DNA from: Candidatus Norongarragalinales archaeon
Lineage (GTDB): Archaea; Micrarchaeota; Micrarchaeia; Norongarragalinales; SBBD01
NCBI GenBank assembly: GCA_035288785.1
Contig: DATDZF010000009.1
Coordinates: 330 to 64,329 of the forward strand
Length of the DNA: 64,000 nt
Direction of reading: 5' to 3'
In this document: positions 1,124-64,000 of the stretch, piece by piece
Numbering within the stretch: the first letter of the stretch is position 1
How the letters are laid out: every line of letters starts with the position of its first letter
Program-made: the position numbers and the translations under genes
The notes under the pieces: model-generated
The model's database searches: none
What the model saw: only the letters and a program-made list of their open reading frames with translations
Told to the model about the DNA's origin: nothing

Positions 1124-2517
1124 CTTATGTTTTCCTTCGAGAATATGAAATCTGCCAGAGAATCCCGTAGTTCAGTATTTTTCCGCAGTTCATATAATAA
1201 GCTATCCTTTTCGAGCAGCGTCATTGCCTTGAAGGCGGGAATGAAATGGGATGCGATTCCGGAACTCGTTGGTGACTTGCGTACCCGGGCAAGGACGGAT
1301 AGCGCATATCCATCCTTCCGGCCCTCCTCTATCACGACCCGGTCTTCCTCCAGGAAGGGGCCCCTCTTCGCGTGTTTGTGCGCACTAAGGAAACCCGCCA
1401 CATCGGACGCAAAATAAACCGGCGGCCCGCGGATCTTTTGGATGGGATAATTCGTAAGGTGCTCCAACTCCAGGAGGATGAAGCAGTGCCCAGTTCCGCT
1501 AAACGAAAGCGAATTGAGGGTCTTGTATTCCGCAAGGTGAAGCTGCTTTACAACCGATGCCTCGCAGCGCCTAAGCTGCGGCACCAGGATGTCACTTACG
1601 AGGTTTTTGGGCCTTGCGAGCCGGATCAGGAGGATGTTGCGTTCCTTGAGGCAATCCTCGAGTGCCTTTGGGGAATATTCCCGTTTTTCGCGGATGAAAA
1701 AGGCATCAGAGGGGGAATTGAGGAACGAGCGCGATAGGGCAATGAAGAGTGCAAAACTGCGCAGCGTTATGGCAGCGGCGGCATTCCGGTTGCGGTCAAT
1801 GAAATCCATTATTATCAGGGGGGTTGTGAAGCGTTTTTTCAGCTGGCCAAACTCCTGGTCGTAATAATCCTCAATGTCGAGGATTACGGGCGGCTTCCAC
1901 TTGGATGCCTCCTGCAGCAGGTTCCTAAGCGAGCGGTAATTGAGGACCAGGTACTCGCACACAAGCCCGGAAAAGCCCCCTACTTCCAGTTCCGCCCCGT
2001 AGATGCCATGCGCCTTGAGGAGCGCTTTTAGCACCCGCACATCCCGCTTCTGCTTTTCAGTTAGGTGCTTTTGAAGATATTGGGCATGGAGGGGGGTGCG
2101 GTCCACGGCGGATATGATACCCTCGTTGACCTCAATTTTGAAGCATGGCACGATCTCGAGCTTGTATCCGGCTAGGCGGCCTTGAAGATAGGGGTGTTCG
2201 GCATAATGCATCTCCCAGCTTGCCGGCAAAACCCGCTTTACGGTTGAAACCGTCTCCCTCACAATCGCATCCTTGCTCTTTTCCTTTGGGAATGCAACAA
2301 AGATGTCAATGTCCCTATCCCCCCGGATCCCGGTGTCACGCGCAGTTGAACCCACGAAAAACAAGGTTGCCCTCGACCCAAATGCCCGTTGCAGCTTTGC
2401 TTTTATGCCTTCCGCGAACGCCTTCTCCTTTTCCGCCTCCTCCTTTGTTGGGGAAATCCTTTTTGCCACTGAGGAGAATATGTTCTCGTAAATAGGGTCG
2501 GGTTTGCGGCTAGCCAT
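1120..2517 (-). CDS. cca: Archaeal class I CCA-adding tRNA nucleotidyltransferase
   Basis: 465 aa; N-terminal pol-beta nucleotidyltransferase motif (GSTARDTGIRGDRDIDIFV), archaeal CCA architecture. Confidence 0.8.
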   Translation of the reverse strand: MASRKPDPIYENIFSSVAKRISPTKEEAEKEKAFAEGIKAKLQRAFGSRATLFFVGSTARDTGIRGDRDIDIFVAFPKEKSKDAIVRETVSTVKRVLPASWEMHYAEHPYLQGRLAGYKLEIVPCFKIEVNEGIISAVDRTPLHAQYLQKHLTEKQKRDVRVLKALLKAHGIYGAELEVGGFSGLVCEYLVLNYRSLRNLLQEASKWKPPVILDIEDYYDQEFGQLKKRFTTPLIIMDFIDRNRNAAAAITLRSFALFIALSRSFLNSPSDAFFIREKREYSPKALEDCLKERNILLIRLARPKNLVSDILVPQLRRCEASVVKQLHLAEYKTLNSLSFSGTGHCFILLELEHLTNYPIQKIRGPPVYFASDVAGFLSAHKHAKRGPFLEEDRVVIEEGRKDGYALSVLARVRKSPTSSGIASHFIPAFKAMTLLEKDSLLYELRKNTELRDSLADFIFSKENIR

Positions 2518-8351: not shown

Positions 8352-8370
8352 CCCGAATCTGCACAAAAAT

Positions 8371-8492
8371 GGGGTCAGCGGTCATAGGGGAGGTGGCACA
8401 CCCGATCCCTTTTCGAACTCGGAAGTTAAGACCTCCTGCGATTCGGCGTGTACTTCTCTGGCGAGAGGGAAAACCGGATACCGCTGCTCTCT
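8371..8492 (+). rRNA. rrf: 5S ribosomal RNA
   Basis: Contains the universal 5S segments TCATAG...GCACACCCGATCCCTTTTCGAACTCGGAAGTTAAG; helix I pairs CAGCGG (5') with CCGCTG (3'); ends in a T-run. Exact ends are within about 5 nt. Confidence 0.8.
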
Positions 8493-8593
8493 TTACAACC
8501 CCTAATTTAATCTTTGGCACGTGCATCTTAACTGAAGGATTTCCTAGGTTTGCAGTAAAAACCATTATTAAAATAACGAGCGCATATCTTCCC

Positions 8594-9772
8594 ATGCCCC
8601 CACTCGAAAGAGACGTGATTTTTTCTAAAATTTTCAATGATGAACAGCGCAGGCTCCACCGGGAACTTAACCGGTTTTCGAGGAGGCACATCGCCCCATT
8701 CCTTGTGGAGATGAACGAGAGGGAAGAGGTATCACCGGAGCTGATCAAAAGGCTTCGGCGAAGGAAGCTCTTTGGGATCGGCATCCCGAAAAAGTACGGG
8801 GGCAGGGGCGGGGGCTTGGTCAGCGCATGCATCCGCGATGAAGCGCTAGGGTATGGCTCCGGGGCCGTTGGTCTTCTGGTAGGTGTTCCTGCTGGCGTTG
8901 CCGCGAGCACCATCCTGTTTGCGGGGACGGAAAAGCAAAAGCAGAATTGGGTAAGGCAGATTGCTGCGGGAACCATAGCAACTTTCCAGCTAACAGAGCC
9001 AGACAGGGGAAGCGATACCGACGTGCAATCCACAGTAAGGTTCACCGGAAGGGACGCCACGCTCAATGGGAACAAGGTATTCGTAACCAACGGCAAATTG
9101 GGCAAATTCGGGGTGGTAATTGCGCGAACCCCTCACCCTACAATAAAGGATAAGTTCCAGAATGTTGCGGTCATCGTGCCCGACATAGAAAAGTACATTG
9201 GGGAAAAGCATGGAAGGAAGATGGGGCTCAAAGCCTCACATACGAGCATTTTCCATTATGTCGATACGCCGCTCTCCTTCAAGCACGTGCTGGGCTTGAA
9301 GAGGGGGATTGGGATTGGCAGAAAAGCGGCATTCATGGCGCTGGATAAAAGCAGGGTGACGCTATCTGCAATTGCGCTCGGGATGGCAAGGCGCGCATAT
9401 GACGAGACCCTTGCCCATTACAAGGGGCAAGTCGCACGGAGGGAGCTCTCAGATGAGCAAATGGAATACCGCAGCAGCCTGATTGGGAAAATGAATAAGG
9501 ATATTCAGGCAATGCGGAGGCTGGTCTACACGGTTGCCGCGGAGTACGCCCCAACACGAGATTTTTCTGGCAAATCCATTGGCACGAAAATATTCGCATC
9601 CGAGACCCTGAACAAAATCATACAGAACGGATTGAAGGTAATTGGCGCGCCAGCCTATACTGAAAACCACCCGTTGGGCGTGCTATCTAATGACGCCAAA
9701 GTGTTCGAGATTTTCGAGGGAGCAAATGAGGCGATTTTGGCCGCCCTGGCAAGGCAATTGACTGAAAAATAA
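8594..9772 (+). CDS. Acyl-CoA dehydrogenase
   Basis: ACAD N-terminal and middle motifs (IPKKYGG, LTEPDRGSDT); start moved to Met 8594 (MPPLERD) because the track ORF from 8369 would run through the 5S rRNA gene. Confidence 0.75.
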   Translation: MPPLERDVIFSKIFNDEQRRLHRELNRFSRRHIAPFLVEMNEREEVSPELIKRLRRRKLFGIGIPKKYGGRGGGLVSACIRDEALGYGSGAVGLLVGVPAGVAASTILFAGTEKQKQNWVRQIAAGTIATFQLTEPDRGSDTDVQSTVRFTGRDATLNGNKVFVTNGKLGKFGVVIARTPHPTIKDKFQNVAVIVPDIEKYIGEKHGRKMGLKASHTSIFHYVDTPLSFKHVLGLKRGIGIGRKAAFMALDKSRVTLSAIALGMARRAYDETLAHYKGQVARRELSDEQMEYRSSLIGKMNKDIQAMRRLVYTVAAEYAPTRDFSGKSIGTKIFASETLNKIIQNGLKVIGAPAYTENHPLGVLSNDAKVFEIFEGANEAILAALARQLTEK

Positions 9773-9781
9773 TTTTGCAAT

Positions 9782-9844
9782 GGGAGGGGTTGGGCAATTG
9801 GTAAGAACAGGGTGCACCAGAAACCCGGAGTTTCCGGGCATGCC
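9782..9844 (+). repeat. Copy A of an approximately 60-nt structured intergenic repeat (GGGAGGGG..GGGCAA...CCAGAAACCCGGAGTTTCCGGGCATGC)
   Basis: About 75% identical to 17445..17503; contains hairpin CCCGG-AGTTT-CCGGG; sits between convergent ACAD and PCNA. Confidence 0.6.
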
Positions 9845-9885
9845 TTGTAAGTAACGGAATCAAGAGCATTCTTCATTTTGGGTTT

Positions 9886-10641
9886 TTATGCGGATTCCAC
9901 CCTTGGCGCAAGGAAGAACACGAACTCCGCCTCGGAAATCTTGTAGGAGAGCCGGATTGGCTTGTTGGTTCCGAACTCTATGTGTACTGGCTCGGCTTCA
10001 ATGGCTGCGCGGGTCATCTTGTCCAGGTATTCCGCAGGGTACATCGCCTTGGTGGCAGATGCCGCCTTGACCTCCAGGTCCTTGAGGGTCTTCGTATTGT
10101 TCTCTACCTTCAGGTCCCCTGAATCGCCGTGCGCCTCTATGTTGAACTGGCCATCCTGTGCTTCCATCTGCAGGTGGGATGAAACTAGCACCACATCCTT
10201 GAGCATTTCCTTGAAATGGCCCGCCTTGATCTTGACAGCTGTCTCGAGCTGCACCTTGGGCTCTTTTGGGATGGACGAATCGCGCAAATCAAGCAGCGGG
10301 AGCTTGAAATCGCGCTTGGAATCGCCCGCAAAATCAATGAGCAGCCTATTGCCCTCCTTCTCGTCAAAAACAATGGTGACTTTCTCGGAGCCCTTGCTCC
10401 TTGAAAGCACTTTTGAAAGGTCCTGCAGGTTCAGTGAAATCGTCCGTGGCTCGTCCACATCGAAGGACGCAAACGCATGCCCCTTTGGCAGCCTGAAATC
10501 AACCATCGCTATCTGCGAGGGGTCAAGTGAGCGCAGGTGGATCCCTTCCTTTGAAATCTCGAAGCTGCCCTCATCTATCAGGTTGCCAACAGCGTCAATG
10601 CACTGCTTGAAGAATCGCGCATCCTTGAATGAGAATTCCAT
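9886..10641 (-). CDS. pcn: DNA polymerase sliding clamp PCNA
   Basis: 251 aa from Met 10641 (MEFSFKDARFFKQCIDAV...); PCNA two-domain length and N-terminal pattern. Confidence 0.8.
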   Translation of the reverse strand: MEFSFKDARFFKQCIDAVGNLIDEGSFEISKEGIHLRSLDPSQIAMVDFRLPKGHAFASFDVDEPRTISLNLQDLSKVLSRSKGSEKVTIVFDEKEGNRLLIDFAGDSKRDFKLPLLDLRDSSIPKEPKVQLETAVKIKAGHFKEMLKDVVLVSSHLQMEAQDGQFNIEAHGDSGDLKVENNTKTLKDLEVKAASATKAMYPAEYLDKMTRAAIEAEPVHIEFGTNKPIRLSYKISEAEFVFFLAPRVESA

Positions 10642-14127: not shown

Positions 14128-16455
14128 CTACTTTTGCGCCGGAGCCGTGCTCGTGCTGGTCCAGGCGATGTCATCACCGTTGGCAACGAGCTGGTAGTAC
14201 TTCTTTACGATTACCGGCGGATAGTAAAACACAGCCGAGGTGGGCGAGATGCTATGGAATTCGGTTCCCCGGTAGGAAGTATAGCCGATTTCTTTAGTGG
14301 CAAAATTCTCGTTGCCCAGATAGCTATAACCTATTTTATCGACTGTTGAAGAACCAATTACGTTCACGAATTGCCTTAAATTCTTGTCGTAAAGTATGTT
14401 CAAGTGCCAGTTGCTGTAATGGGTGAAGACATTGCCAGCCTCCGTATCCGATATCTTTTCCGGTATTTTTATCGCAACGCCATTAGGGATGCTGAAGTCG
14501 AAGTATATGTCGGCTCTTTCATCGGTGCGATAGTGATAGAAGGCATAATTGAAACCGCCATATTTGATGTAACCACTTGAGTCCAGATAGAAGATGCCGC
14601 CGGGGGTAAGCGGGCCGTATCCGCAGCTCGTTCCATTGCCAGAGCCATTGCCACCAGTCATGTTCGAGCAGCTGTAACCCGATCCATTGACGACCACATA
14701 GACGTCGGGAACCGACCTTCCGGGGAATTGGAAGGCATTGCTTAATCCGGAGACTATGTAGATGAAATCGCCATTTATCGAGCCATCGATAGTGGTCAGG
14801 GTTATGCTCCTTTGGACTGTGAACTGGAGCGTATCTGCCACCATTGTTGGGCCATCGCCAACATATTTGAACGAGAATCCCATCGGGTACTTGATAATGC
14901 CAATTTTCTCCCCGGCATTAAGGGTCTGGGAGATCGGAATCTTGTAGGTCTGGTCGAGGTCATTGTAGATTCGGATAGCTGAAATGGATTCGGAGCCATC
15001 CGGATTGGAAAGATAGTATGTGAGCGAGTTCCTGCCATCCTTCACAAAATAACCATCGATATCCAAATAGTAGATGTCGCCCATGGTGCTATTGGAATTG
15101 TTTGAAAGTGGGCTTACCATATAGTAAATGTCGTTAACCTTCCTTTCGCCGAAACGAAATACCTCGGGTTTTTGGGCAACAGCTAGCATAATGTCGCCGG
15201 TAATTGTTGTCCCATCCTTGAAGGTCATGGAGTAGGCTTTGAGCAAGGAGAAGGATACTACATCAGCGCCGGGGTCATATTTCACATTGCCTCCTGTTGA
15301 GCTTTTTTGGTAAAGGCCATTTGCATCAAGGTAATAGATTTCGGATGGCGCCCTAACCCTGAAAAGGATTTCATCAACAATCCGTGAGCCAAAATTGAAC
15401 GCATTATTCTGGGCGGAATCCACAACGACAAAATCATCGGTAAGTGTTGAGCCGTCCGACAAGGCTATTGCCATGGATTTTTTGACTCCAAGGCTCCAAG
15501 GATCGTATGCGGCAGGCAGAATGTAACGGTCAGACACGATATTGTTATACCAATTCTTAGCTGCGCCGGGTTGATTGACTATCTCAACCTCATAGCCATT
15601 TTTCAGGAACATGGTTTTTCCATCCTCACGGACAAGCTTCAGGTTGATGATTGAGCCGCCTTCGAGCCAGTAGTCCCGGACATACCACGATGAGCCCAAA
15701 ACCCAGATCTTGAGGTTGGAATTCTTAAGCTGCTGTGCAGCCGGGCAATTGGATGCGCTTTTTGTGAGATCAAAGCAAAGCGGCAATGGCTGGTTGAACA
15801 TCGCCACATAGCCGGTCTTGGCATATTTTGCCTGAACCGCTTTTACCGTTTCATCGTAGGAGGTGTAGGCGAAAAGGAGTGCATGGTTCTCTTCCGTCAC
15901 GGATAGTCCGTTTCCGGAATAAATGAGGCCATTATTCGGGAGTGAAAGTGGTTGCGCCAAGGAAGCTTTCAGGTATTTTGGCCCCATGTTCGGTAAAAAG
16001 TAGCTAACGCCGCTTCCAAAACGTGATGTTTCTGTTGTGTACCTGACGCTGTCGGGCTGGTAATCGAGATCGTCATGGATGTAGGTGCTCATTTGATAGG
16101 GTTGGGGGGCAAAACAGGTGCCGCCGGTCTGTGGGATTTGGCCTGCCGGGCAGCCGCATTTGATCGAATTCGAAACGAGCTGGCCAGAGGAGGTGCAGAA
16201 TTTGGGCTTTGCCTTGGAGCAGGAGTTGAGCTTTGTTGCATAAACATCATTGCAGGAAGTCTTAGCAGGGCCAAGAGTAGCTGCAACTTTTGCTCCGCCG
16301 CCGATTGCCTCCCCATAGATGTTGCCGGAGGCAAGGGGGCCGCTGGCATCAGTAGGCTGCTTTGACATGAAAATGACGGCTACTAGCAATGCAACTGCAA
16401 TGCAGGCAATGACGAACCAGTAATTCGGGGCAGACTCCTTGCTTTTCCTTACCAT
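14128..16455 (-). CDS. Large secreted/surface protein with N-terminal signal-anchor (possible S-layer or adhesin)
   Basis: 775 aa; N-terminal TM (WFVIACIAVALLVAVIFM), Ser/Thr/Gly/Asn/Tyr-rich beta-like composition, many Cys near N-terminus. Confidence 0.55.
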   Translation of the reverse strand: MVRKSKESAPNYWFVIACIAVALLVAVIFMSKQPTDASGPLASGNIYGEAIGGGAKVAATLGPAKTSCNDVYATKLNSCSKAKPKFCTSSGQLVSNSIKCGCPAGQIPQTGGTCFAPQPYQMSTYIHDDLDYQPDSVRYTTETSRFGSGVSYFLPNMGPKYLKASLAQPLSLPNNGLIYSGNGLSVTEENHALLFAYTSYDETVKAVQAKYAKTGYVAMFNQPLPLCFDLTKSASNCPAAQQLKNSNLKIWVLGSSWYVRDYWLEGGSIINLKLVREDGKTMFLKNGYEVEIVNQPGAAKNWYNNIVSDRYILPAAYDPWSLGVKKSMAIALSDGSTLTDDFVVVDSAQNNAFNFGSRIVDEILFRVRAPSEIYYLDANGLYQKSSTGGNVKYDPGADVVSFSLLKAYSMTFKDGTTITGDIMLAVAQKPEVFRFGERKVNDIYYMVSPLSNNSNSTMGDIYYLDIDGYFVKDGRNSLTYYLSNPDGSESISAIRIYNDLDQTYKIPISQTLNAGEKIGIIKYPMGFSFKYVGDGPTMVADTLQFTVQRSITLTTIDGSINGDFIYIVSGLSNAFQFPGRSVPDVYVVVNGSGYSCSNMTGGNGSGNGTSCGYGPLTPGGIFYLDSSGYIKYGGFNYAFYHYRTDERADIYFDFSIPNGVAIKIPEKISDTEAGNVFTHYSNWHLNILYDKNLRQFVNVIGSSTVDKIGYSYLGNENFATKEIGYTSYRGTEFHSISPTSAVFYYPPVIVKKYYQLVANGDDIAWTSTSTAPAQK

Positions 16456-16608: not shown

Positions 16609-17319
16609 TTACCTTTTCCCAAATAATGCAGCGCCAATCCTAACCATAGTGGCGCCTTCCTCAATTGCAACCAAGTAGTCCTGCGACATTCCCATTGAAA
16701 GCTCTGGGAGTGAATGATGAAAAGTGGCTTGGAGATGCTTTTGCAGAAGGCATAGCTTTTGGAAGATCGGCCGGGAACGCTCGGGATCCCCGCTTAACGG
16801 CGCAATTGTCATCAAACCCGTAATTTGAAGGTGTGGTAGAAGGAGCAATGTTTGGAAATTCGCAAGCAGGTCCGCTTCATGGAACCCGGCTTTCGATCCC
16901 TCCCTAGAGACATTAACCTGAAGGAGCGCTTTTTGCCTCTTACCCTGCTTTCCGGCCTCCGAATTTATTTTTTCCGCCAATTTCAGGGAATCGATGGAGT
17001 GGATCCACTCGAAGAGCTCAACGGCCTTTTTCACCTTGTTGGTCTGGAGCCTTCCCATGAAATGCCAATTTACGGAATAGTTGGGCGGCAGTGAATTTGA
17101 GACAATTATCTTCCTTTCCGCTTCCTGCACCTTGCTTTCGCCAAAATCAGTGATTCCCAAAGCGAATGCCTCCCTGATTGCGGCCTGATGCTGGTTTTTC
17201 GTTACTGCAATGAGAATGACTGATGCGGGATTGCGCTTGGCATTTTGACAGGCAATTGCAATATTTCGCCTTACCAGCTCGAGGTTTACTTCAATCGGCG
17301 TTCCATTTTCCTTAAGCAT
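16609..17319 (-). CDS. YggS/PLPHP family pyridoxal-phosphate homeostasis protein
   Basis: 236 aa; alanine-racemase N-terminal-like barrel with conserved Lys context (IAVTKNQ). Confidence 0.75.
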   Translation of the reverse strand: MLKENGTPIEVNLELVRRNIAIACQNAKRNPASVILIAVTKNQHQAAIREAFALGITDFGESKVQEAERKIIVSNSLPPNYSVNWHFMGRLQTNKVKKAVELFEWIHSIDSLKLAEKINSEAGKQGKRQKALLQVNVSREGSKAGFHEADLLANFQTLLLLPHLQITGLMTIAPLSGDPERSRPIFQKLCLLQKHLQATFHHSLPELSMGMSQDYLVAIEEGATMVRIGAALFGKR

Positions 17320-17444
17320 AAAAGAAGATAGGGAAAAAGGGTTATTATTAACATTCAGAGGAGGGTTTGGGCAAGCGTCTTGGGGGAACCTAGGTTTCCC
17401 GCTACCCTTGGAAGCATCCCCTTCCTAATTCGCAAAACTAATTA

Positions 17445-17503
17445 GGAGGGGCAGGGCAACCCGGTAGGGGATGCTCCAGAAACCCCGAGTTTCTGGGCAT
17501 GCT
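17445..17503 (+). repeat. Copy B of the ~60-nt structured repeat (AGGAGGGGCAGGGCAA...CCAGAAACCCCGAGTTTCTGGGCATGC)
   Basis: Aligned by eye to 9782..9844; hairpin CCAGAAAC-CCCGA-GTTTCTGG; embedded in a hairpin-rich 250-nt divergent intergenic region. Confidence 0.6.
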
Positions 17504-17573
17504 TAGAACCCGTAGGGTTCTGACGCAACGTAGTTCCCCTTGGGGTTGGGGATTTGCCCTCCTTGGGTTGGTC

Positions 17574-19769
17574 ATGAATTACCTTTATATTCAGCGCGAA
17601 ATTAATGCTCCCATGGTAGCGGTAGAAGCCATCCCCATTGTGCAGATCGGCGTGATCGTGCTTTCGGCATTCATATTCGGGATCATCTTCTCGAAGATGG
17701 GTTTCTCATCGGCGGTAGGGTATATCCTTGCGGGGCTATTGCTTGGGCCATTTGGGGTGAACTACCTTGCAGCAGATCAGATCGGCGTTGCCTCGGTGTT
17801 TGGAGAGATCGGCGTAATGATGCTCCTTTTCTACTTGGGGCTCGAGCTTAACATCAGGCGGTTCAAGGAAACCGGCGCGATTGCGACAATACTTGCAGCT
17901 GTGGAGATGCTCGCGGCATTCGTGATGGGCTTTGCAATCTCCAAATATTTCGGCTTTTCCGATTTGGAATCGGTTGTTATCGGGGCCATGCTGACCGCCA
18001 CATCCACCGTAATCACCTCGAAGTTCATAATTGAGCGGAAGATGATGGACGGCGCCGAATCCAAGATAGTGATCTCAGTTTTGATCCTCGAGGATTTCCT
18101 GGCAATCCTCATACTGGTCTTTGTCGCAAGCCTTGTGGAGCAAAAATCGCTCAATATCCTCGTGATCAACGCACTTTTCTTCGTAATAGCTATGTTCTTC
18201 CTGGTTAGCAAGGTCTCCAAGCATGTCCTGAATTTCCTTAGCAGCATAGGGTATGAGGACCAGATGTGGCTGTATGCCATTGGGGTATTCATCACTGTAG
18301 CGTTCTTCGGAAGCACCTATCTTGGGCTTAGCGCCGCGCTTGGCGCATATTTTGCGGGCTTTGCGCTTGCGGAAAGCGCGTACGGGGAGAGGATAAAGAG
18401 GGAGCTTGGGCTCTTTAGGGAATTCTTCGTGCTGTTCTTTTTCGTGAGCTTTGGGGCTACCGCCGCATTCCCGGATTCAGGCATGCTGTACTGGATGGTA
18501 GCGGCGCTGGTAATCGGGTATATTCTTGCAAAGCTGCTTTCAGATGTGGTTTTTGGCACCGCCGTAGGATTGGAGATGAAATCCGCAGTGACGGGGGGCC
18601 TATTAATGGGATCCGTCGGGGAGTTCGCGCTTATAATCGCAGCCTCGCTAAAGCCCCTGCACCTGCAAAGCGAGGGGGGAATCCTATCGCTTGCATTCAT
18701 GCTAACCCTCGTAACAACAATCACGATGCCGGTGCTGTTCTCCCAAAAGGATAAGATTACCGCATTTTTCGAGAGGGCATACCCCTTCCAGTTCAGGAGG
18801 AAGGGCTTCCTCGAAGGCCAGATCAATGCGCTGGATGGGCTTGCCAAGGATGCTGCGTTCCAAAACGAGTACCTGGTGTCGCTGGGCGCGCTTTTCAAGA
18901 ACCTCGTGATTGCGGTATCCATCGTATATTTGAGCTACCTTGCAAATTTTGAAATAAAATTGGGCTTTGCGCCGTTCATCCCATCTACCGTATCCGTGAG
19001 CATCATAATCCTCGCCCTTATTGTCTGGCCAATCTATAAGTTCATCAACGAGCTCAAATACATCACAAAGCGCGTGGCAAACGGCCTGCTCATACAGGTA
19101 TTTCCAACGAAGGACAAGAATATCCTTGCGATTGAAAGGCAGGTGGGCGACATCTTCTCGGGGATCGTGCTAGTGCTCACCGGGGCAATAGTAACGGTTT
19201 ACATGTACTACCATTTCCAAAGCGAAATCCTATTCCTGCTCATACCGGCAGCATACACCGTTATTGCCATCATGTACCTCAGCCGTGCATTCTACGGGCT
19301 AATAGAGCAATATGAGCAGTTGGAGGAGAATGTGGGGATCGGCTCGGAAACGACGGCAAACCTCGCATTTGCGGACCTCAGCAAGGAATTCAATGCGCAT
19401 GCAAAAACCCTGCAGCAGCTGCAGGCGGAGAGGATGGAGGCCAAGGACCGCATCCAGGAGGCGATACGGACCAACAACCTCCTGCTTGCGAAGCAGGCGC
19501 TTTCGCAGTTCAAAAAATTCGAAAACCGCGCCCTCACAAACATCATGAACGTGGGCACATACAAGCGCTACCCCCAGCTGCGCTCAATGCTGGAGGCGGA
19601 TGTCAACAAGACGGCAGGCGCAGCCGGAAAGATTGGGGAAATTGACACCAAGGAAGCGTTCGTGAAATACATGCAAGAGCACCTAAAGCCCCAGCTTTAT
19701 GAAATAGAGGCGCACAGAAAGCTAAGGTCGCAAAAGGATGGAAAGGCGAAACTGAAAGGAAAAAAATGA
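17574..19769 (+). CDS. CPA2-family cation/proton antiporter (Kef/NapA-like) with long C-terminal coiled-coil domain
   Basis: About 730 aa; 12-13 TM N-terminal antiporter core followed by about 300-aa soluble/coiled-coil region; start uncertain (17499, 17574 or 17613). Confidence 0.65.
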   Translation: MNYLYIQREINAPMVAVEAIPIVQIGVIVLSAFIFGIIFSKMGFSSAVGYILAGLLLGPFGVNYLAADQIGVASVFGEIGVMMLLFYLGLELNIRRFKETGAIATILAAVEMLAAFVMGFAISKYFGFSDLESVVIGAMLTATSTVITSKFIIERKMMDGAESKIVISVLILEDFLAILILVFVASLVEQKSLNILVINALFFVIAMFFLVSKVSKHVLNFLSSIGYEDQMWLYAIGVFITVAFFGSTYLGLSAALGAYFAGFALAESAYGERIKRELGLFREFFVLFFFVSFGATAAFPDSGMLYWMVAALVIGYILAKLLSDVVFGTAVGLEMKSAVTGGLLMGSVGEFALIIAASLKPLHLQSEGGILSLAFMLTLVTTITMPVLFSQKDKITAFFERAYPFQFRRKGFLEGQINALDGLAKDAAFQNEYLVSLGALFKNLVIAVSIVYLSYLANFEIKLGFAPFIPSTVSVSIIILALIVWPIYKFINELKYITKRVANGLLIQVFPTKDKNILAIERQVGDIFSGIVLVLTGAIVTVYMYYHFQSEILFLLIPAAYTVIAIMYLSRAFYGLIEQYEQLEENVGIGSETTANLAFADLSKEFNAHAKTLQQLQAERMEAKDRIQEAIRTNNLLLAKQALSQFKKFENRALTNIMNVGTYKRYPQLRSMLEADVNKTAGAAGKIGEIDTKEAFVKYMQEHLKPQLYEIEAHRKLRSQKDGKAKLKGKK

Positions 19770-21309: not shown

Positions 21310-22345
21310 TTAAAATTTTCGTTTAATAATCGCAGCCCATACGCCCATTGACGTGGTAAAAGACAAGGTTTAAATATTTGGAAAGCCAAATATTTAGGCA
21401 CTCGAATTGAGCGTTGGTGGGAAGAGATCGAAAAGGCGTAAGACTTTCTGATTCAAGGATTTGCCTCCTTTGGGTTAATCGCCTTTTCTCTCGTACCACT
21501 ATCCAAAAGCCCTAGAGGCGCTTCCGTACTGATAAAAGTGTCACCGGGTTACATTCATTGACGCAAATTGGATCAAAAAATAACAAGAAGCGCTTCCCAT
21601 AACAATACCTTTTAGCCCGACTCCTCCAAAGAGCCCACGCATGAAGATAAATATCGCTTTGCGTAAGCCCACCTGCCCCCAAAGCACATAGAGTGTTATT
21701 CATTTGTCCTCCATGTCGCTTTCCCGACTGACTAGGTACCGGTAGGTGTTTCCAAGGAGAACCTTGAACTCATCCTGGCGCTCTTTCCTATCGATTGCCG
21801 GCTTCAAAAAACCTATTTGCCTCCTTTGCATCCTGATGACCACCACCTTTTTTTGGAAAAATGCGAAGATACTAAAAACGCTAATTGCACTCGAATCCCA
21901 GCGAATTGGAATATTTGGGAAGGGGGCGCATGAATTCAACGGAATTGCCTCCTTTACGGTTTCGGGCGCCCGCCTCCCCATCTTTTGCACATCACCCCGA
22001 TTTGAGCGAATTTTGCCCGGAAAAAGTTTTTCCGGTGCAAGATGAGAATTACGCATGGAATACGCTAGAGCTTTGTTCTTTCAGGCGAGTCAGCAGCAAA
22101 AGCAAGAGAAAGCGCGTCATCCTCGTTTTTTAGGCGGTGAGCTTGGTGGCGCAGAACATGATAGCGTAATTATTCTTCAAAAGCAAATGAGCCCGTTTCG
22201 AAATGAATTCCATCGCTATCACAAGGAAAAAGCGGTGAAAATATATAAAGGTTTGGTTTTACCTCGTAAAATAGCCATTTGTCGATGCGTCCTTCGTAGG
22301 GAAAGAAATAATAAAGTGAAGAAGGGCAATTGTGGACGGGGGGGA

Positions 22346-30536: not shown

Positions 30537-31007
30537 CTAGGCGCGCAGTCGCCTGGTTTCAGAAGCCGGGTGCTCGGGAAAGAGGGGATGGAGCTCGAAT
30601 TCGTGGAAAGTGCCTCCACGACCTACTTTTGTTACCCCGAGTTGCCTTACTTCCACCGGGATGGGATGCGCTTCCCAAGAAAGCTTTCGTGCAGCCCGGC
30701 CTACTGCCTCTTCGAGGTGCACAACGAGTGGTTTTTCCTCGCGGGGCCCTTTTTTTGGAGGGATTGGGCGCCCGGATGCCCTTGCAACTTTTTCCTCCAG
30801 CATTTGCGCCCAAGCCTCGTCAAATCCGGGGGGCAGGTTTGGTTTTGGGCTAAAGCTGCTTAAAGTCAGGCGTATCCTTCCCGGAAGCAGCCAGCCTCCC
30901 TTGACTTTCATGCCAATTAGCCTGTAGCGCAGGTCAGGATGGCCGTTGATTTCGGCTTCGAGCCTTCTTTTTAAGGCAAATAAGAATTCGCGCCTGGTGA
31001 CCATCAA
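30537..31007 (-). CDS. Hypothetical Arg/Pro-rich protein downstream of scpA
   Basis: 156 aa; locally GC-rich with multiple overlapping frames, so frame choice is uncertain. Confidence 0.35.
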   Translation of the reverse strand: MMVTRREFLFALKRRLEAEINGHPDLRYRLIGMKVKGGWLLPGRIRLTLSSFSPKPNLPPGFDEAWAQMLEEKVARASGRPIPPKKGPREEKPLVVHLEEAVGRAARKLSWEAHPIPVEVRQLGVTKVGRGGTFHEFELHPLFPEHPASETRRLRA

Positions 31008-63715: not shown

Positions 63716-63899
63716 GCAAATCCCCCCGAATTAGTGCAATCCTTAAGCCGGTTCTGATATATATGGCTTGTGGAGAAAATGGCAACGATTTATAAATGAG
63801 ATTGGCAGGTGCGGCAATTGCATATGGGGCAAACGCCATTAGGGCCTGAACTGGGCTCCAAGCAATGCTAATGAAGGTCCGAAGGGGGAAAATTGCCCC

Positions 63900-64000
63900 C
63901 TACATTTTATCGAACGAAACCTTCACCGGCCCGCGTTCGCCTTCCTCAACCTTGAAGTAATCCTTCTTGGAAAAGCCACCCATGCTTGCAACGAGGTTGC
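63900..64000 (-). CDS. Partial CDS (C-terminal end only; gene continues beyond window)
   Basis: Minus-strand frame open from the window end to stop at 63900..63902 (...MGGFSKKDYFKVEEGERGPVKVSFDKM*). Confidence 0.3.
   Translation of the reverse strand, partial: NLVASMGGFSKKDYFKVEEGERGPVKVSFDKM

Follow-up and report, generated by a model that had tools for sequence, protein, structure and literature searches.

Composite hairpin-forming repeats in intergenic regions of Micrarchaeota: a probable new modular family

Two similar intergenic sequences, here called copy A and copy B, were studied in a 64,000-nt stretch of the Candidatus Norongarragalinales archaeon genome (assembly GCA_035288785.1, contig DATDZF010000009.1, positions 330 to 64,329 of the forward strand; hereafter the window). 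On balance, the two probably belong to a modular family of hairpin-forming repeats, apparently new, that occupies intergenic positions in Micrarchaeota, a lineage of the DPANN archaea. Each full copy is a composite of ~100-130 nt in which a module (M) is nested in a scaffold (S), and ~25 copies, all of them intergenic, were found in at least six Micrarchaeota genomes. The evidence consists of this composite anatomy, the presence and absence of elements at orthologous sites, the S-only relatives at the sites of copies A and B, the covariation in S, and the preference for one strand. DPANN archaea have very small, compact genomes and are not yet easily cultured, and their non-coding content is almost unexplored. 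Our search of the full-text literature gave no account of an element of this kind from Micrarchaeota or DPANN.

Composite structure of the repeats

A preliminary description had presented copies A and B as a two-copy structured repeat of about 60 nt, with ~75% identity between 9782-9844 and 17445-17503. Global alignment of these segments gave 48 identical columns of 64 (75.0%), and the observed score was reached by 0 of 2000 shuffles. The 27-nt core said to be nearly identical in both copies occurred exactly twice in the window with two differences (25/27 positions common; shuffle expectation, 0.00), and the identity over a 63-nt core was 68%. The count and the length had to be revised: a third related element, copy C, was detected by motif search, and both copies proved to be composites about twice the reported length (Table 1). 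The stem-loop predicted for the core was perfect in copy B, where the 8-bp stem CCAGAAAC/GTTTCTGG (P2) was lengthened by ATGC/GCAT, whereas in copy A it contained one A.C mismatch, and the minimum-energy fold favoured a shifted 6-bp hairpin, CCCGGA/TCCGGG, over the P2 stem. Isolated stretches of ~90 nt fold little better than shuffled sequences (z = -0.7 for A and -2.05 for B).

Module M, of ~58 nt, is a twin hairpin of the form P2-GCATGC-P3, and the 27-nt core corresponds to P2 plus GCATGC. Its consensus is (A)TGC-N-(P2: CCAGAAAC-loop-GTTTCTGG)-GCATGC-NNAG-(P3: AGAACC-loop-GGTTCT)-GA(C)-GCAT. Scaffold S, of ~55 nt, has a G-rich tail at its 5' end, GGGGGGTTTGGGCAT, and after it a hairpin of ~16 bp, ACTAAGGGGG-loop-CCCCCTTGGGTTGGTC; its consensus is GGGGGGTTTGGGCAT-CC-(GACCAA-A-CUAAGGGGG-loop-CCCCCUUGG-G-UUGGUC)-A. 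The inner part of this hairpin, ACTAAGGGGG/CCCCCTTGGG, is invariant and includes a fixed U.G wobble and an A.G mismatch, whereas the outer 6 bp covary. S was defined from copies without M, namely L042 1840-1891, L001 2232-2288, L016 5659-5713, L012 5356-5411, and L038 726-780 (L numbers denote loci outside the window), and the boundaries of the element, from the G-run to GT(C)A, were set by the alignment of type-1 copies.

M was found in three contexts. It lies in the apical loop of S in copies A and B and in L001, L036, and L008, and in the tail of S, between GGGCAT and CCGAC, in L004, L007, L010, L012, L023, L024, and L040. In L011, L017, and L022 it is carried by a different scaffold (type 2), the tail of which, CCCCTCCTAATT, is common to these members and copy C; copy C itself scored only 13.1 bits with the scaffold model. 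L008 contains a half-module at the tail position in addition to the full module in the loop, and the S-only copy of L042 equals the L036 copy minus M.

A likeness was also seen between the two components. The 3' part of M, GGGGGTTCTGACGCATCC, resembles the 5' tail of S, GGGGGGTTTGGGCATCC, in the cmsearch-aligned copies L024 6304-6320, L007 4529-4546, and L040 9221-9237, and the P2 3' arm followed by GGGCAT shows the same likeness. S and M may have been built from one ancestral "hairpin arm + GCAT" unit.

Table 1 Coordinates of copies A, B, and C and of the adjoining exchanger promoter in the window. Bit scores are those of the covariance model of M (R1).
Feature	Position	Strand	Description
Copy A, whole composite	9783..9889	+	Degenerate S (GGGCAA/RTAAGA subfamily) with M in the apical loop; 56.9 bits
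Copy A, scaffold 5' half	9783..9812	+	Signature GGAGGGGTTGGGCAA (9783-9797), linker, GTAAGA (9801-9806; 5' arm of the scaffold outer helix), ACAGGG
Copy A, module M	9813..9869	+	TGCA; P2 5' arm CCAGAAAC (9817-9824); loop CCGGA
Copy A, 27-nt core	9817-9843		Core of the preliminary description
Copy A, P2 3' arm	9830-9837		GTTTCCGG, one A.C mismatch; followed by palindrome GCATGC (9838-9843)
Copy A, replaced P3			CTTG (9844-9847) paired with CAAG (9861-9864); then AGCAT
Copy A, 3' arm	9883-9889		TTTTTAT; overlaps the PCNA stop (TTA 9886-9888; TAA on the - strand)
Copy A, flanks			Align with S-only L038 726-780, from AATGGG through ...TCCAC within the PCNA gene end
Copy C, related single-hairpin element	17360..17430	+	5' signature GGAGGGTTTGGGCAA, then GCGTCTT
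Copy C, hairpin			GGGGAAC (17383-17389) / GTTTCCC (17394-17400)
Copy C, 3' tail	17418-17430		CCCCTTCCTAATT
Copy C, close relative	L016 ~1300-1375	-	
Copy B, whole composite	17445..17573	+	Rearranged S with M in the loop; 79.1 bits
Copy B, module M	17471..17528	+	ATGC-T; P2 CCAGAAAC (17476-17483) paired with GTTTCTGG (17489-17496)
Copy B, remainder of M			GCATGC (17497-17502); P3 AGAACCC (17505-17511) / GGGTTCT (17515-17521); GAC-GCAA
Copy B, family tail	17561-17573		CCTTGGGTTGGTC; ~10 nt upstream of the exchanger TATA box
Exchanger TATA box (outside the element)	17584-17593	+	CTTTATATTC
Exchanger called start (outside the element)	17613	+	ATG

Distribution of the family

An exact-pattern scan of one genome per species gave a single match, in the Micrarchaeota metagenome-assembled genome L001, and its likeness to copy B continued far past the core, taking in a second hairpin and a tail of the form CCCC...TTGGGTTGGTC. 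Metagenomes, scanned with a looser pattern, gave 28 loci. Of these, ~17, representing 12 distinct copies, showed extended flank similarity, many of them from the 0.2 µm fraction of Hainich groundwater, and the rest were chance matches. Two scans of viral contigs gave no match, and a viral origin was accordingly rejected.

Covariance models were built for M (R1) and S (R2). R2 was rebuilt from a consistent subset, as MAFFT had misplaced a 1-nt linker difference in the first scaffold alignment, and its seed contained one added G in L042_S (in the stem G-run) and in L016_S and L007_dM (at the 5' end), as well as an added flanking A 5' of L004_dM. With these models, copies lying beyond the bias of the pattern search were recovered: those of L036 and L040, and the S-only copies of L001, L016, L012, L038, and L042. 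The two models separate true members from chance matches and can be used for annotating Micrarchaeota genomes. Across 121 kb from five relatives, the M model found only one strong copy (L040).

Several genomes are involved, since the host contigs have 41-53% G+C and no genes in common with the window. The M cores are 83-95% identical between genomes, whereas copies A and B share only 68% over the 63-nt core, which points to old subfamilies common to several genomes. For comparison, the housekeeping proteins of the window are 55-89% identical to those of the relatives L035 and L036, its 5S rRNA matches that of L035 at 105 of 116 positions, and the exchangers of other relatives are 54-69% identical to that of the window. 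The proposal that the likeness is not due to chance was borne out, the copies found representing a family retained in relatives.

Matches to known RNA families were not obtained. When the window and 14 loci were scanned with Rfam 15 (4227 families), no family reached its gathering threshold on the elements, the only hits being 5S rRNA and one tRNA elsewhere, and the regions of copies A and B gave only noise at E<=10. Inspection by eye revealed no hammerhead core, no canonical kink-turn (at position 1b stands U or C instead of G), and no bulge-helix-bulge at the M boundaries. Known riboswitches, ribozymes, and C/D small RNAs were thus rejected as identities of the element. A weak match at 30757-30799 was discarded because it lies inside a probable coding open reading frame (ORF). 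At 63872-63925 on the minus strand, a hairpin, GGGGGCAATTTTCCCCCTTCGGACC, directly follows a stop codon and is weakly S-like (12 bits); it may be a remote relative of S or unrelated.

Secondary structure, covariation, and strand preference

In the ten confident copies, five of the six pairs of the S outer helix change on both sides, the variants being GACCAA/TTGGTC, GACAAA/TTTGTC, GACAAG/CTTGTC, GTGAGA/TCTTAC, and ATAAGA/TCTTAT. Paired cells made up 98.6% overall, the observed covariation was reached by 0 of 500 shuffles, and shifted registers collapsed. These counts were made with real sequences only, realigned by cmsearch in an alignment fitted to the model, and the raw sequences showed the same pattern. 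The U.G wobble was present in 10/10 S copies. In type-2 copies the closing helix covaries (GACAC/GTGTC versus AACAC/GTGTT), as does the 5' hairpin. Copy A, after loss of its C-run, has a replacement closing helix, AAGAA/TTCTT. P3 has two compensated pairs, and P2 has no covariation, its only departures being uncompensated A.C mismatches in copy A and L036. By the generic criterion for a structured RNA, namely compensatory changes, the S outer helix qualifies and P2, the hairpin of the preliminary description, does not.

The element also distinguishes the two strands. The G-rich strand folds better than its complement in 14 of 15 members, by up to 12 kcal/mol, and R2 scores were 49-80 bits for the forward strand against ~14-32 bits for the reverse complements. 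The M model does not decide the strand, because P2 and P3 are alike and the reverse strand therefore scores well too. The arms of S remain complementary whether they enclose a 3-nt loop or a 61-nt M insert, which argues against a protein dimer on duplex DNA and fits a folded single strand.

This last observation bears on the possibility that a protein binds the copies as double-stranded DNA, with the inverted repeats as half-sites; the protein might be a transcription regulator or a chromatin protein, or the site an origin box of the Orc1/Cdc6 type. P2 and P3 are indeed inverted repeats of a similar, sequence-invariant half-site (YMAGAAMC), several copies (copy B, L042, L010, and L001) lie directly beside TATA boxes, and the G-runs, the TCCAG..GAAAC motif, and the PCNA gene beside copy A superficially recall an archaeal origin recognition box (ORB). 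Nevertheless, covarying arms that stay paired over inserts of 3 to 61 nt are difficult to reconcile with such a site, the strand asymmetry in the U.G wobble and the folding energies would be meaningless for duplex DNA, and many copies lie at the 3' ends of convergent genes. We therefore consider the proposed shared protein-binding site, if on duplex DNA, improbable. Its ORB version was rejected for want of supporting context, as the copies are dispersed and single, no Orc1/Cdc6 gene occurs among the neighbours, and no AT-rich unwinding region lies beside them.

A functional structured RNA is a more serious rival: at orthologous sites S has been retained with changes that preserve its helices, and neither its wobble nor its mismatch varies. 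The copies would then be multi-copy small RNA genes or cis elements in read-through transcripts, the latter acting in 3'-end protection, as processing or termination signals, or as sites for RNA-binding proteins; the U.G wobble and A.G mismatch of S and the invariant P2 of M would be protein-recognition features. The covariation in the S outer helix and the type-2 closing helices, the universal wobble, the folding preference for the G-rich strand, the strong forward/reverse asymmetry of R2, and the replacement helix of copy A all agree with this explanation. So does the presence of S at the PCNA site of two genomes with 69% identity between their exchangers, and about 8 of 20 copies are sense-oriented just past the stop codon of a gene or, in L038, past 5S rRNA.

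Other features do not fit an RNA gene. Even at E<=10 none of the 4227 Rfam families matched. By eye, no consistent TATA box was seen ~26 nt upstream of the copies, AT-rich stretches being centred at -9 to -26 or absent (L007, L036, and the S-only copy of L001), although the 5S, exchanger, and OPT genes have clear boxes, and no T-run terminator was seen after the family tail. The gene-relative orientation is mixed (convergent, divergent, tandem, or antisense), with L008, L017, and L040 antisense to both neighbours, and P2, when read on the G-rich strand, varies only by uncompensated A.C mismatches. Moreover, most relatives lack the element at any given site, so that it is dispensable there. Thus, the earlier suggestion of a non-coding RNA family gained some support from the scaffold helices and the strand asymmetry, but none from P2, the promoters, or the orientation, and we judge it possible, if rather unlikely.

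A coding function was also considered, as a small ORF runs from ATG 9781 to TAA 9853, the alignment of copies A and B has a 3-nt gap, and copy B is in frame with the exchanger ORF. It was rejected because the P2 loop varies between 3 and 7 nt, L012 has an in-frame TAG, and copy B has no start codon.

Orthologous sites with and without the element

The spacer between the YggS and Na+/H+ exchanger genes is 256 nt long in the window and holds copies C and B. In six relatives without the element (L035, L036, L038, L040, L043, and L044) it is 40-112 nt, and in L042 it is 124 nt with an S-only copy (1840-1891) that ends 7 nt before the same CCTTTATATTC box that follows copy B. The exchanger TATA box and its spacing are kept in the relatives lacking the element. 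The S-only copy at the same site in L042 suggests that copy B is an S at a shared site that later acquired M. Furthermore, as the TATA box and the start codon of the exchanger gene lie downstream of copy B, this copy is placed upstream of the promoter and outside the effectively leaderless mRNA.

These data bear directly on the idea that the exchanger gene has a riboswitch or leader in copy B, together with copy C in tandem, and that copy A is a decayed duplicate. The end of copy B is separated by 1 nt from an in-frame ATG (17575) that belongs to the long exchanger ORF, and the L012 member adjoins another Na_H_Exchanger gene. The latter element, however, lies downstream of its exchanger gene, not upstream, other copies stand beside unrelated genes, and no Rfam riboswitch matched. 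We rejected this very improbable explanation, as it is contradicted by the position of the TATA box and by the empty sites in six related genomes. The long exchanger ORF, called from 17499, exemplifies how the elements flag overextension of gene calls into repeats.

The divergent YggS and exchanger starts are only 40-52 nt apart in L036 (7394-7446), L038 (6191-6243), L040 (9950-10001), and L043 (9961-10001), against 17319-17613 in the window. In the one such spacer that was read, that of L036, the two start codons stand on either side of one CCTTTATATTCC box. This has the look of a TATA box used in both directions and common to two genes that are effectively leaderless. The repeat stands between YggS and the exchanger in the window and L042, and the window has a second AT-rich box, TTATTATTAA (17343-17352), on the YggS side. 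Insertion of the element splits an apparently single, bidirectional TATA box of the relatives, a natural experiment in archaeal promoter architecture.

At the 3' end of the PCNA gene, the alignment of copy A with the S-only copy of L038 extends through both flanks, and the two overlap the PCNA stop codon alike, suggesting that copy A is an S that gained M and lost its C-run. In the region upstream of OPT, a full element is present in L036, while the window, L040, and L042 align on both sides and have no element. Similarly, L040 has a copy in the spacer between a 599-aa gene and YggS, and the equivalent spacer of the window is empty.

The convergent gene has its TAA stop codon within the 3' arm of the S outer helix at PCNA (window 9883-9889; L038 ~775-780) and at a 407-aa gene (L012 5356-5360), and in L008, L023, and L040 the element ends within 1-3 nt of the convergent stop codon. 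Extreme compaction or a preference for insertion at gene ends could account for this overlap.

The OPT upstream region is of interest in itself, as ~600 nt of non-coding sequence align in four genomes (window ~21700-22340, plus strand; L036 1340-2560, minus strand; L040 14260-15370; L042 5590-6730). Its motifs include ATTGCCTCCTTT, which is repeated, CACATCACCYCGATT, a hairpin GCCCGGAAAAAGTTTTTCCGGGCA, and CAAAAGCA...AAAGCGCGTCATCC. On the minus strand, part of it is covered by a called ORF of 93 aa, and no Rfam family matched it even at E<=1; the region could be an unrecognised RNA gene. A weak match of the repeat search at 21984-22044 was rejected, since it represents a different conserved hairpin in this region.

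Neighbouring genes and ends of the element

The copies adjoin unrelated housekeeping genes, including those for SRP54, leucyl-tRNA synthetase (LeuRS), thioredoxin, RFC, an Obg-like GTPase, PmbA/TldD, Tyr/Trp-tRNA synthetase, a secretion ATPase, and others, in agreement with the earlier statement that the surrounding regions are unrelated. S copies on one contig were co-oriented in all cases (window, L001, L012, and L016), which is suggestive, if based on few cases. The 3' end of the element is conserved as GTC, usually GTCA, and the density was about 1 copy per 20-120 kb in the sequence examined. No autonomous insertion sequence (IS) with the same ends was seen in ~480 kb of fetched sequence, and Y1_Tnp matched none of the ~50 scanned proteins or the precomputed Pfam calls of the fetched loci.

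Two observations were made beside individual copies. The SRP54 gene of the Micrarchaeota contig L007 (801-3914, minus strand) contains an intein with a LAGLIDADG homing-endonuclease domain and encodes 1037 aa, against 435 aa for the intein-free orthologue of L008. In L017, a tRNA gene (2150-2304, plus strand) spans 155 nt, implying a long intron, and its distance from a type-2 element on the other strand is 95 nt.

Gene context of the window

According to Pfam and Rfam, the neighbourhood is archaeal, and the gene order begins with a β-CASP RNase, a stand-alone 5S rRNA gene, an acyl-CoA dehydrogenase gene, and copy A. Then follow, on the minus strand, PCNA, a dihydroorotase-like amidohydrolase, PyrK, PyrD, a 775-aa protein, and YggS, and beyond YggS copies C and B and the Na+/H+ exchanger gene. 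Copy A thus lies, as had been described, in a convergent junction, between the acyl-CoA dehydrogenase gene (plus strand) and PCNA (minus strand).

As same-strand direct repeats that bracket six co-oriented genes, copies A and B might be taken for attL/attR-type ends of a 7.7-kb island (PCNA, pyr genes, and YggS). The bracketed genes are, however, housekeeping genes, and relatives without the repeats keep largely the same order, with a few small genes added and rearrangements of local extent. The two repeats share only 75% identity, no integrase is present, and members of the same family occur singly at many other loci. This hardly credible explanation was rejected, being contradicted by the synteny.

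The 5S rRNA gene (8374-8489, plus strand; 68 bits) has a clear TATA box, GTATATATAC, ~25 nt upstream and is unlinked to 16S/23S rRNA. A mechanical 467-aa ORF (8369-9772) begins inside it, while the real acyl-CoA dehydrogenase has 392 aa. In L035 and L038 the 5S gene directly adjoins PCNA, and the lineage of the window thus appears to have gained the dehydrogenase gene by insertion between the two. Since the L001 element follows a 421-aa gene, as 5S rRNA does in the window, a divergent 5S rRNA was considered as its identity; this was rejected because the two 421-aa proteins are unrelated (β-CASP versus PmbA/TldD) and the 5S sequence is dissimilar.

The 775-aa protein (14128-16455, minus strand) has no Pfam domain, and its synteny between YggS and pyrD is kept. 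It is 100% identical to a protein recorded at NCBI for a Candidatus Norongarragalinales archaeon. Its homologues were found only in Micrarchaeota, namely two that are 41% identical over 61% of the length and one PEGA-domain protein that is 40% identical over 35%.

Discussion

The reading of copies A and B as members of an interspersed repeat family has to be weighed against several observations. No transposase, integrase, or HUH-nuclease domain was found among the neighbours of 13 copies or the gene calls of 9 loci, nor in the Pfam-scanned ORFs of the window (20 of the largest beyond 26 kb and nine around the repeat). The element has no terminal inverted repeats, the 5' end, GGGGGGTTTGGGCAT, being unrelated to the reverse complement of the 3' end, TGACCAACCCAAGGGG; the flanks of at least 10 copies share no direct repeat that would indicate a target-site duplication, and no target sequence is conserved, the 5' flanks being ata, aaa, acc, aga, aag, ctc, aca, caa, tta, and aat. 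The density is low (~3 per 64 kb in the window and 1 per 121 kb in the five relatives), the copies within one genome are old (68% for A and B), and no recent movement is apparent, as the window contig was present in five public samples, among them ERZ27254767 and JGI 3300025317, and copies A and B were identical in all five. The alignment used for the covariation had been fitted to the model. Furthermore, the retention of S at orthologous sites with helix-preserving changes resembles purifying selection for a host function rather than pure selfishness, and the shared sites may reflect either independent insertion at the same site or ancestral presence followed by many losses.

A possible course of events for such a repeat family can nevertheless be outlined from the anatomy and the orthologous sites. 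The S elements would be old residents that are occasionally gained and lost, and M would have entered their loops after S had become resident. Spread could proceed via a single-stranded, hairpin-folded intermediate and an enzyme acting in trans, as in the REP/RAYT or IS200/IS605 systems; alternatively, gene conversion between scaffolds might have distributed the copies. Resident elements would be expected to fold as stable stem-loops in read-through transcripts and may thereby punctuate transcripts between tightly packed genes.

A bolder interpretation, which we consider unlikely, is that M is a minimal mobile module of ~58 nt or that S+M is a new class of structured archaeal RNA. As a mobile module, two hairpins around GCATGC may invade other hairpin repeats of DPANN archaea, at their apical loops and junctions, by a structure-directed, single-strand mechanism with a hitherto unrecognised enzyme. 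As an RNA, S+M would possibly combine a three-way-junction core that is conserved with a hairpin for protein recognition, of which the U.G wobble and the A.G mismatch would be the marks. Either would be the first of its kind for Micrarchaeota, whose reduced genomes are thought to be poor in repetitive DNA.

In any case, the repeat implies either an unrecognised mobilisation machinery or a use by the host, such as the punctuation of transcripts between genes that are tens of bases apart. The elements can also serve as insertion markers for relationships among these lineages.

Comparison with known repeat systems

The known systems closest to the present family include the repetitive extragenic palindromes (REP) and the bacterial interspersed mosaic elements (BIME) composed of them. 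Like REPs, the present elements are short, G+C-rich, imperfect palindromes that are exclusively intergenic and often lie just past stop codons, their stem irregularities tell the strands apart, and their presence varies between related genomes. As in REP/BIME, they are mosaics of units, with subfamilies that differ in stem sequence while the pairing is kept. Classical REPs can occur in hundreds of copies per genome, and REP/REPIN elements, which are associated with a RAYT (Y1 transposase) gene, often exceed 100, a density far above that found here. The host is archaeal, no RAYT gene was seen in the loci scanned, and the units are nested, one hairpin in the loop of another, instead of forming head-to-head dimers.

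The REP/BIME group includes the GTAG and CGTC superfamilies, CGTC repeats being distributed in five bacterial phyla and GTAG repeats in other bacterial phyla (PMC3733652). REPs of the CGTC type have no dedicated transposase and are characterised by an 8-9 bp stem whose positions 1 and 2 are A-T pairs, a loop of 4-5 nt, and a short CCA-like tail (PMC3733652). No dedicated transposase was seen for the family described here in the loci scanned either, and the reverse strand of P3 in M reads CGTC-AGAACC...GGTTCT. This tag, GACG on the forward strand, occurs only beside P3 in most M copies (it is missing in L001, L006, and copy A) and is found neither at P2 nor at the S hairpin, and a GTAG tag is lacking. 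P3 differs in having 6-7 bp, A-T followed by G-C, and no CCA tail; the 8 bp of P2 enclose a 5-nt loop but begin with C-G, C-G. In view of the tags, the stem geometry, the absent CCA tail, and the absence of RAYT from the scanned loci, the family does not appear to belong to the defined REP superfamilies.

The BOX elements of Streptococcus pneumoniae (boxA-boxB-boxC) and the ERIC/IRU elements of enterobacteria are 100-200 nt long and consist of separable modules. Their size variants arise by internal insertion at fixed positions, and they have strong predicted structure, lie in intergenic regions, encode no transposase, and are suspected of effects on transcripts. Compared on the basis of this general knowledge, the present family likewise has modular units, internal insertions, structure, and unrelated neighbouring genes and encodes no transposase. 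It has no sequence similarity to BOX or ERIC and belongs to another domain of life, and neither of them is known to include a twin-hairpin module nested in the apical loop of a second repeat.

The elements also share several properties with MITEs (miniature inverted-repeat transposable elements) and with miniatures derived from IS200/IS605, such as the haloarchaeal PATE: they are non-coding, non-autonomous, and dispersed, and their presence differs between relatives. The preliminary description, which had suggested a MITE-like element, was therefore apt as to behaviour (variable presence at orthologous sites, intergenic location, and unrelated neighbours) but not as to anatomy, as a classical MITE would have terminal inverted repeats and a target-site duplication, and no related transposase was found. 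IS200/IS605 ends carry subterminal hairpins on one strand, with neither terminal inverted repeats nor target duplications, and this matches the absence of both here. Unlike the miniatures of that group, however, the present elements have no conserved 5' tetra- or pentanucleotide, no tnpA or tnpB nearby, and no full-length parent among the sequences found.

Tiny modules of one or two hairpins that invade intergenic regions and loops within other structured sequences are represented by the double-hairpin and repetitive hairpin-forming elements of fungal and sponge mitochondria. These are organellar and have no sequence relationship to the present family, so that the likeness is one of analogy only.

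The element appears to be undescribed yet well defined. The general phenomenon is familiar from bacteria, and the literature searched contained no such repeat from this archaeal lineage. Owing to the modular nesting, the intergenic dispersion, the gains and losses, the non-coding nature, and the strand-marking irregularities of the stem, the family is best read as an interspersed palindromic repeat, akin in kind to REP/BIME, BOX, and ERIC.

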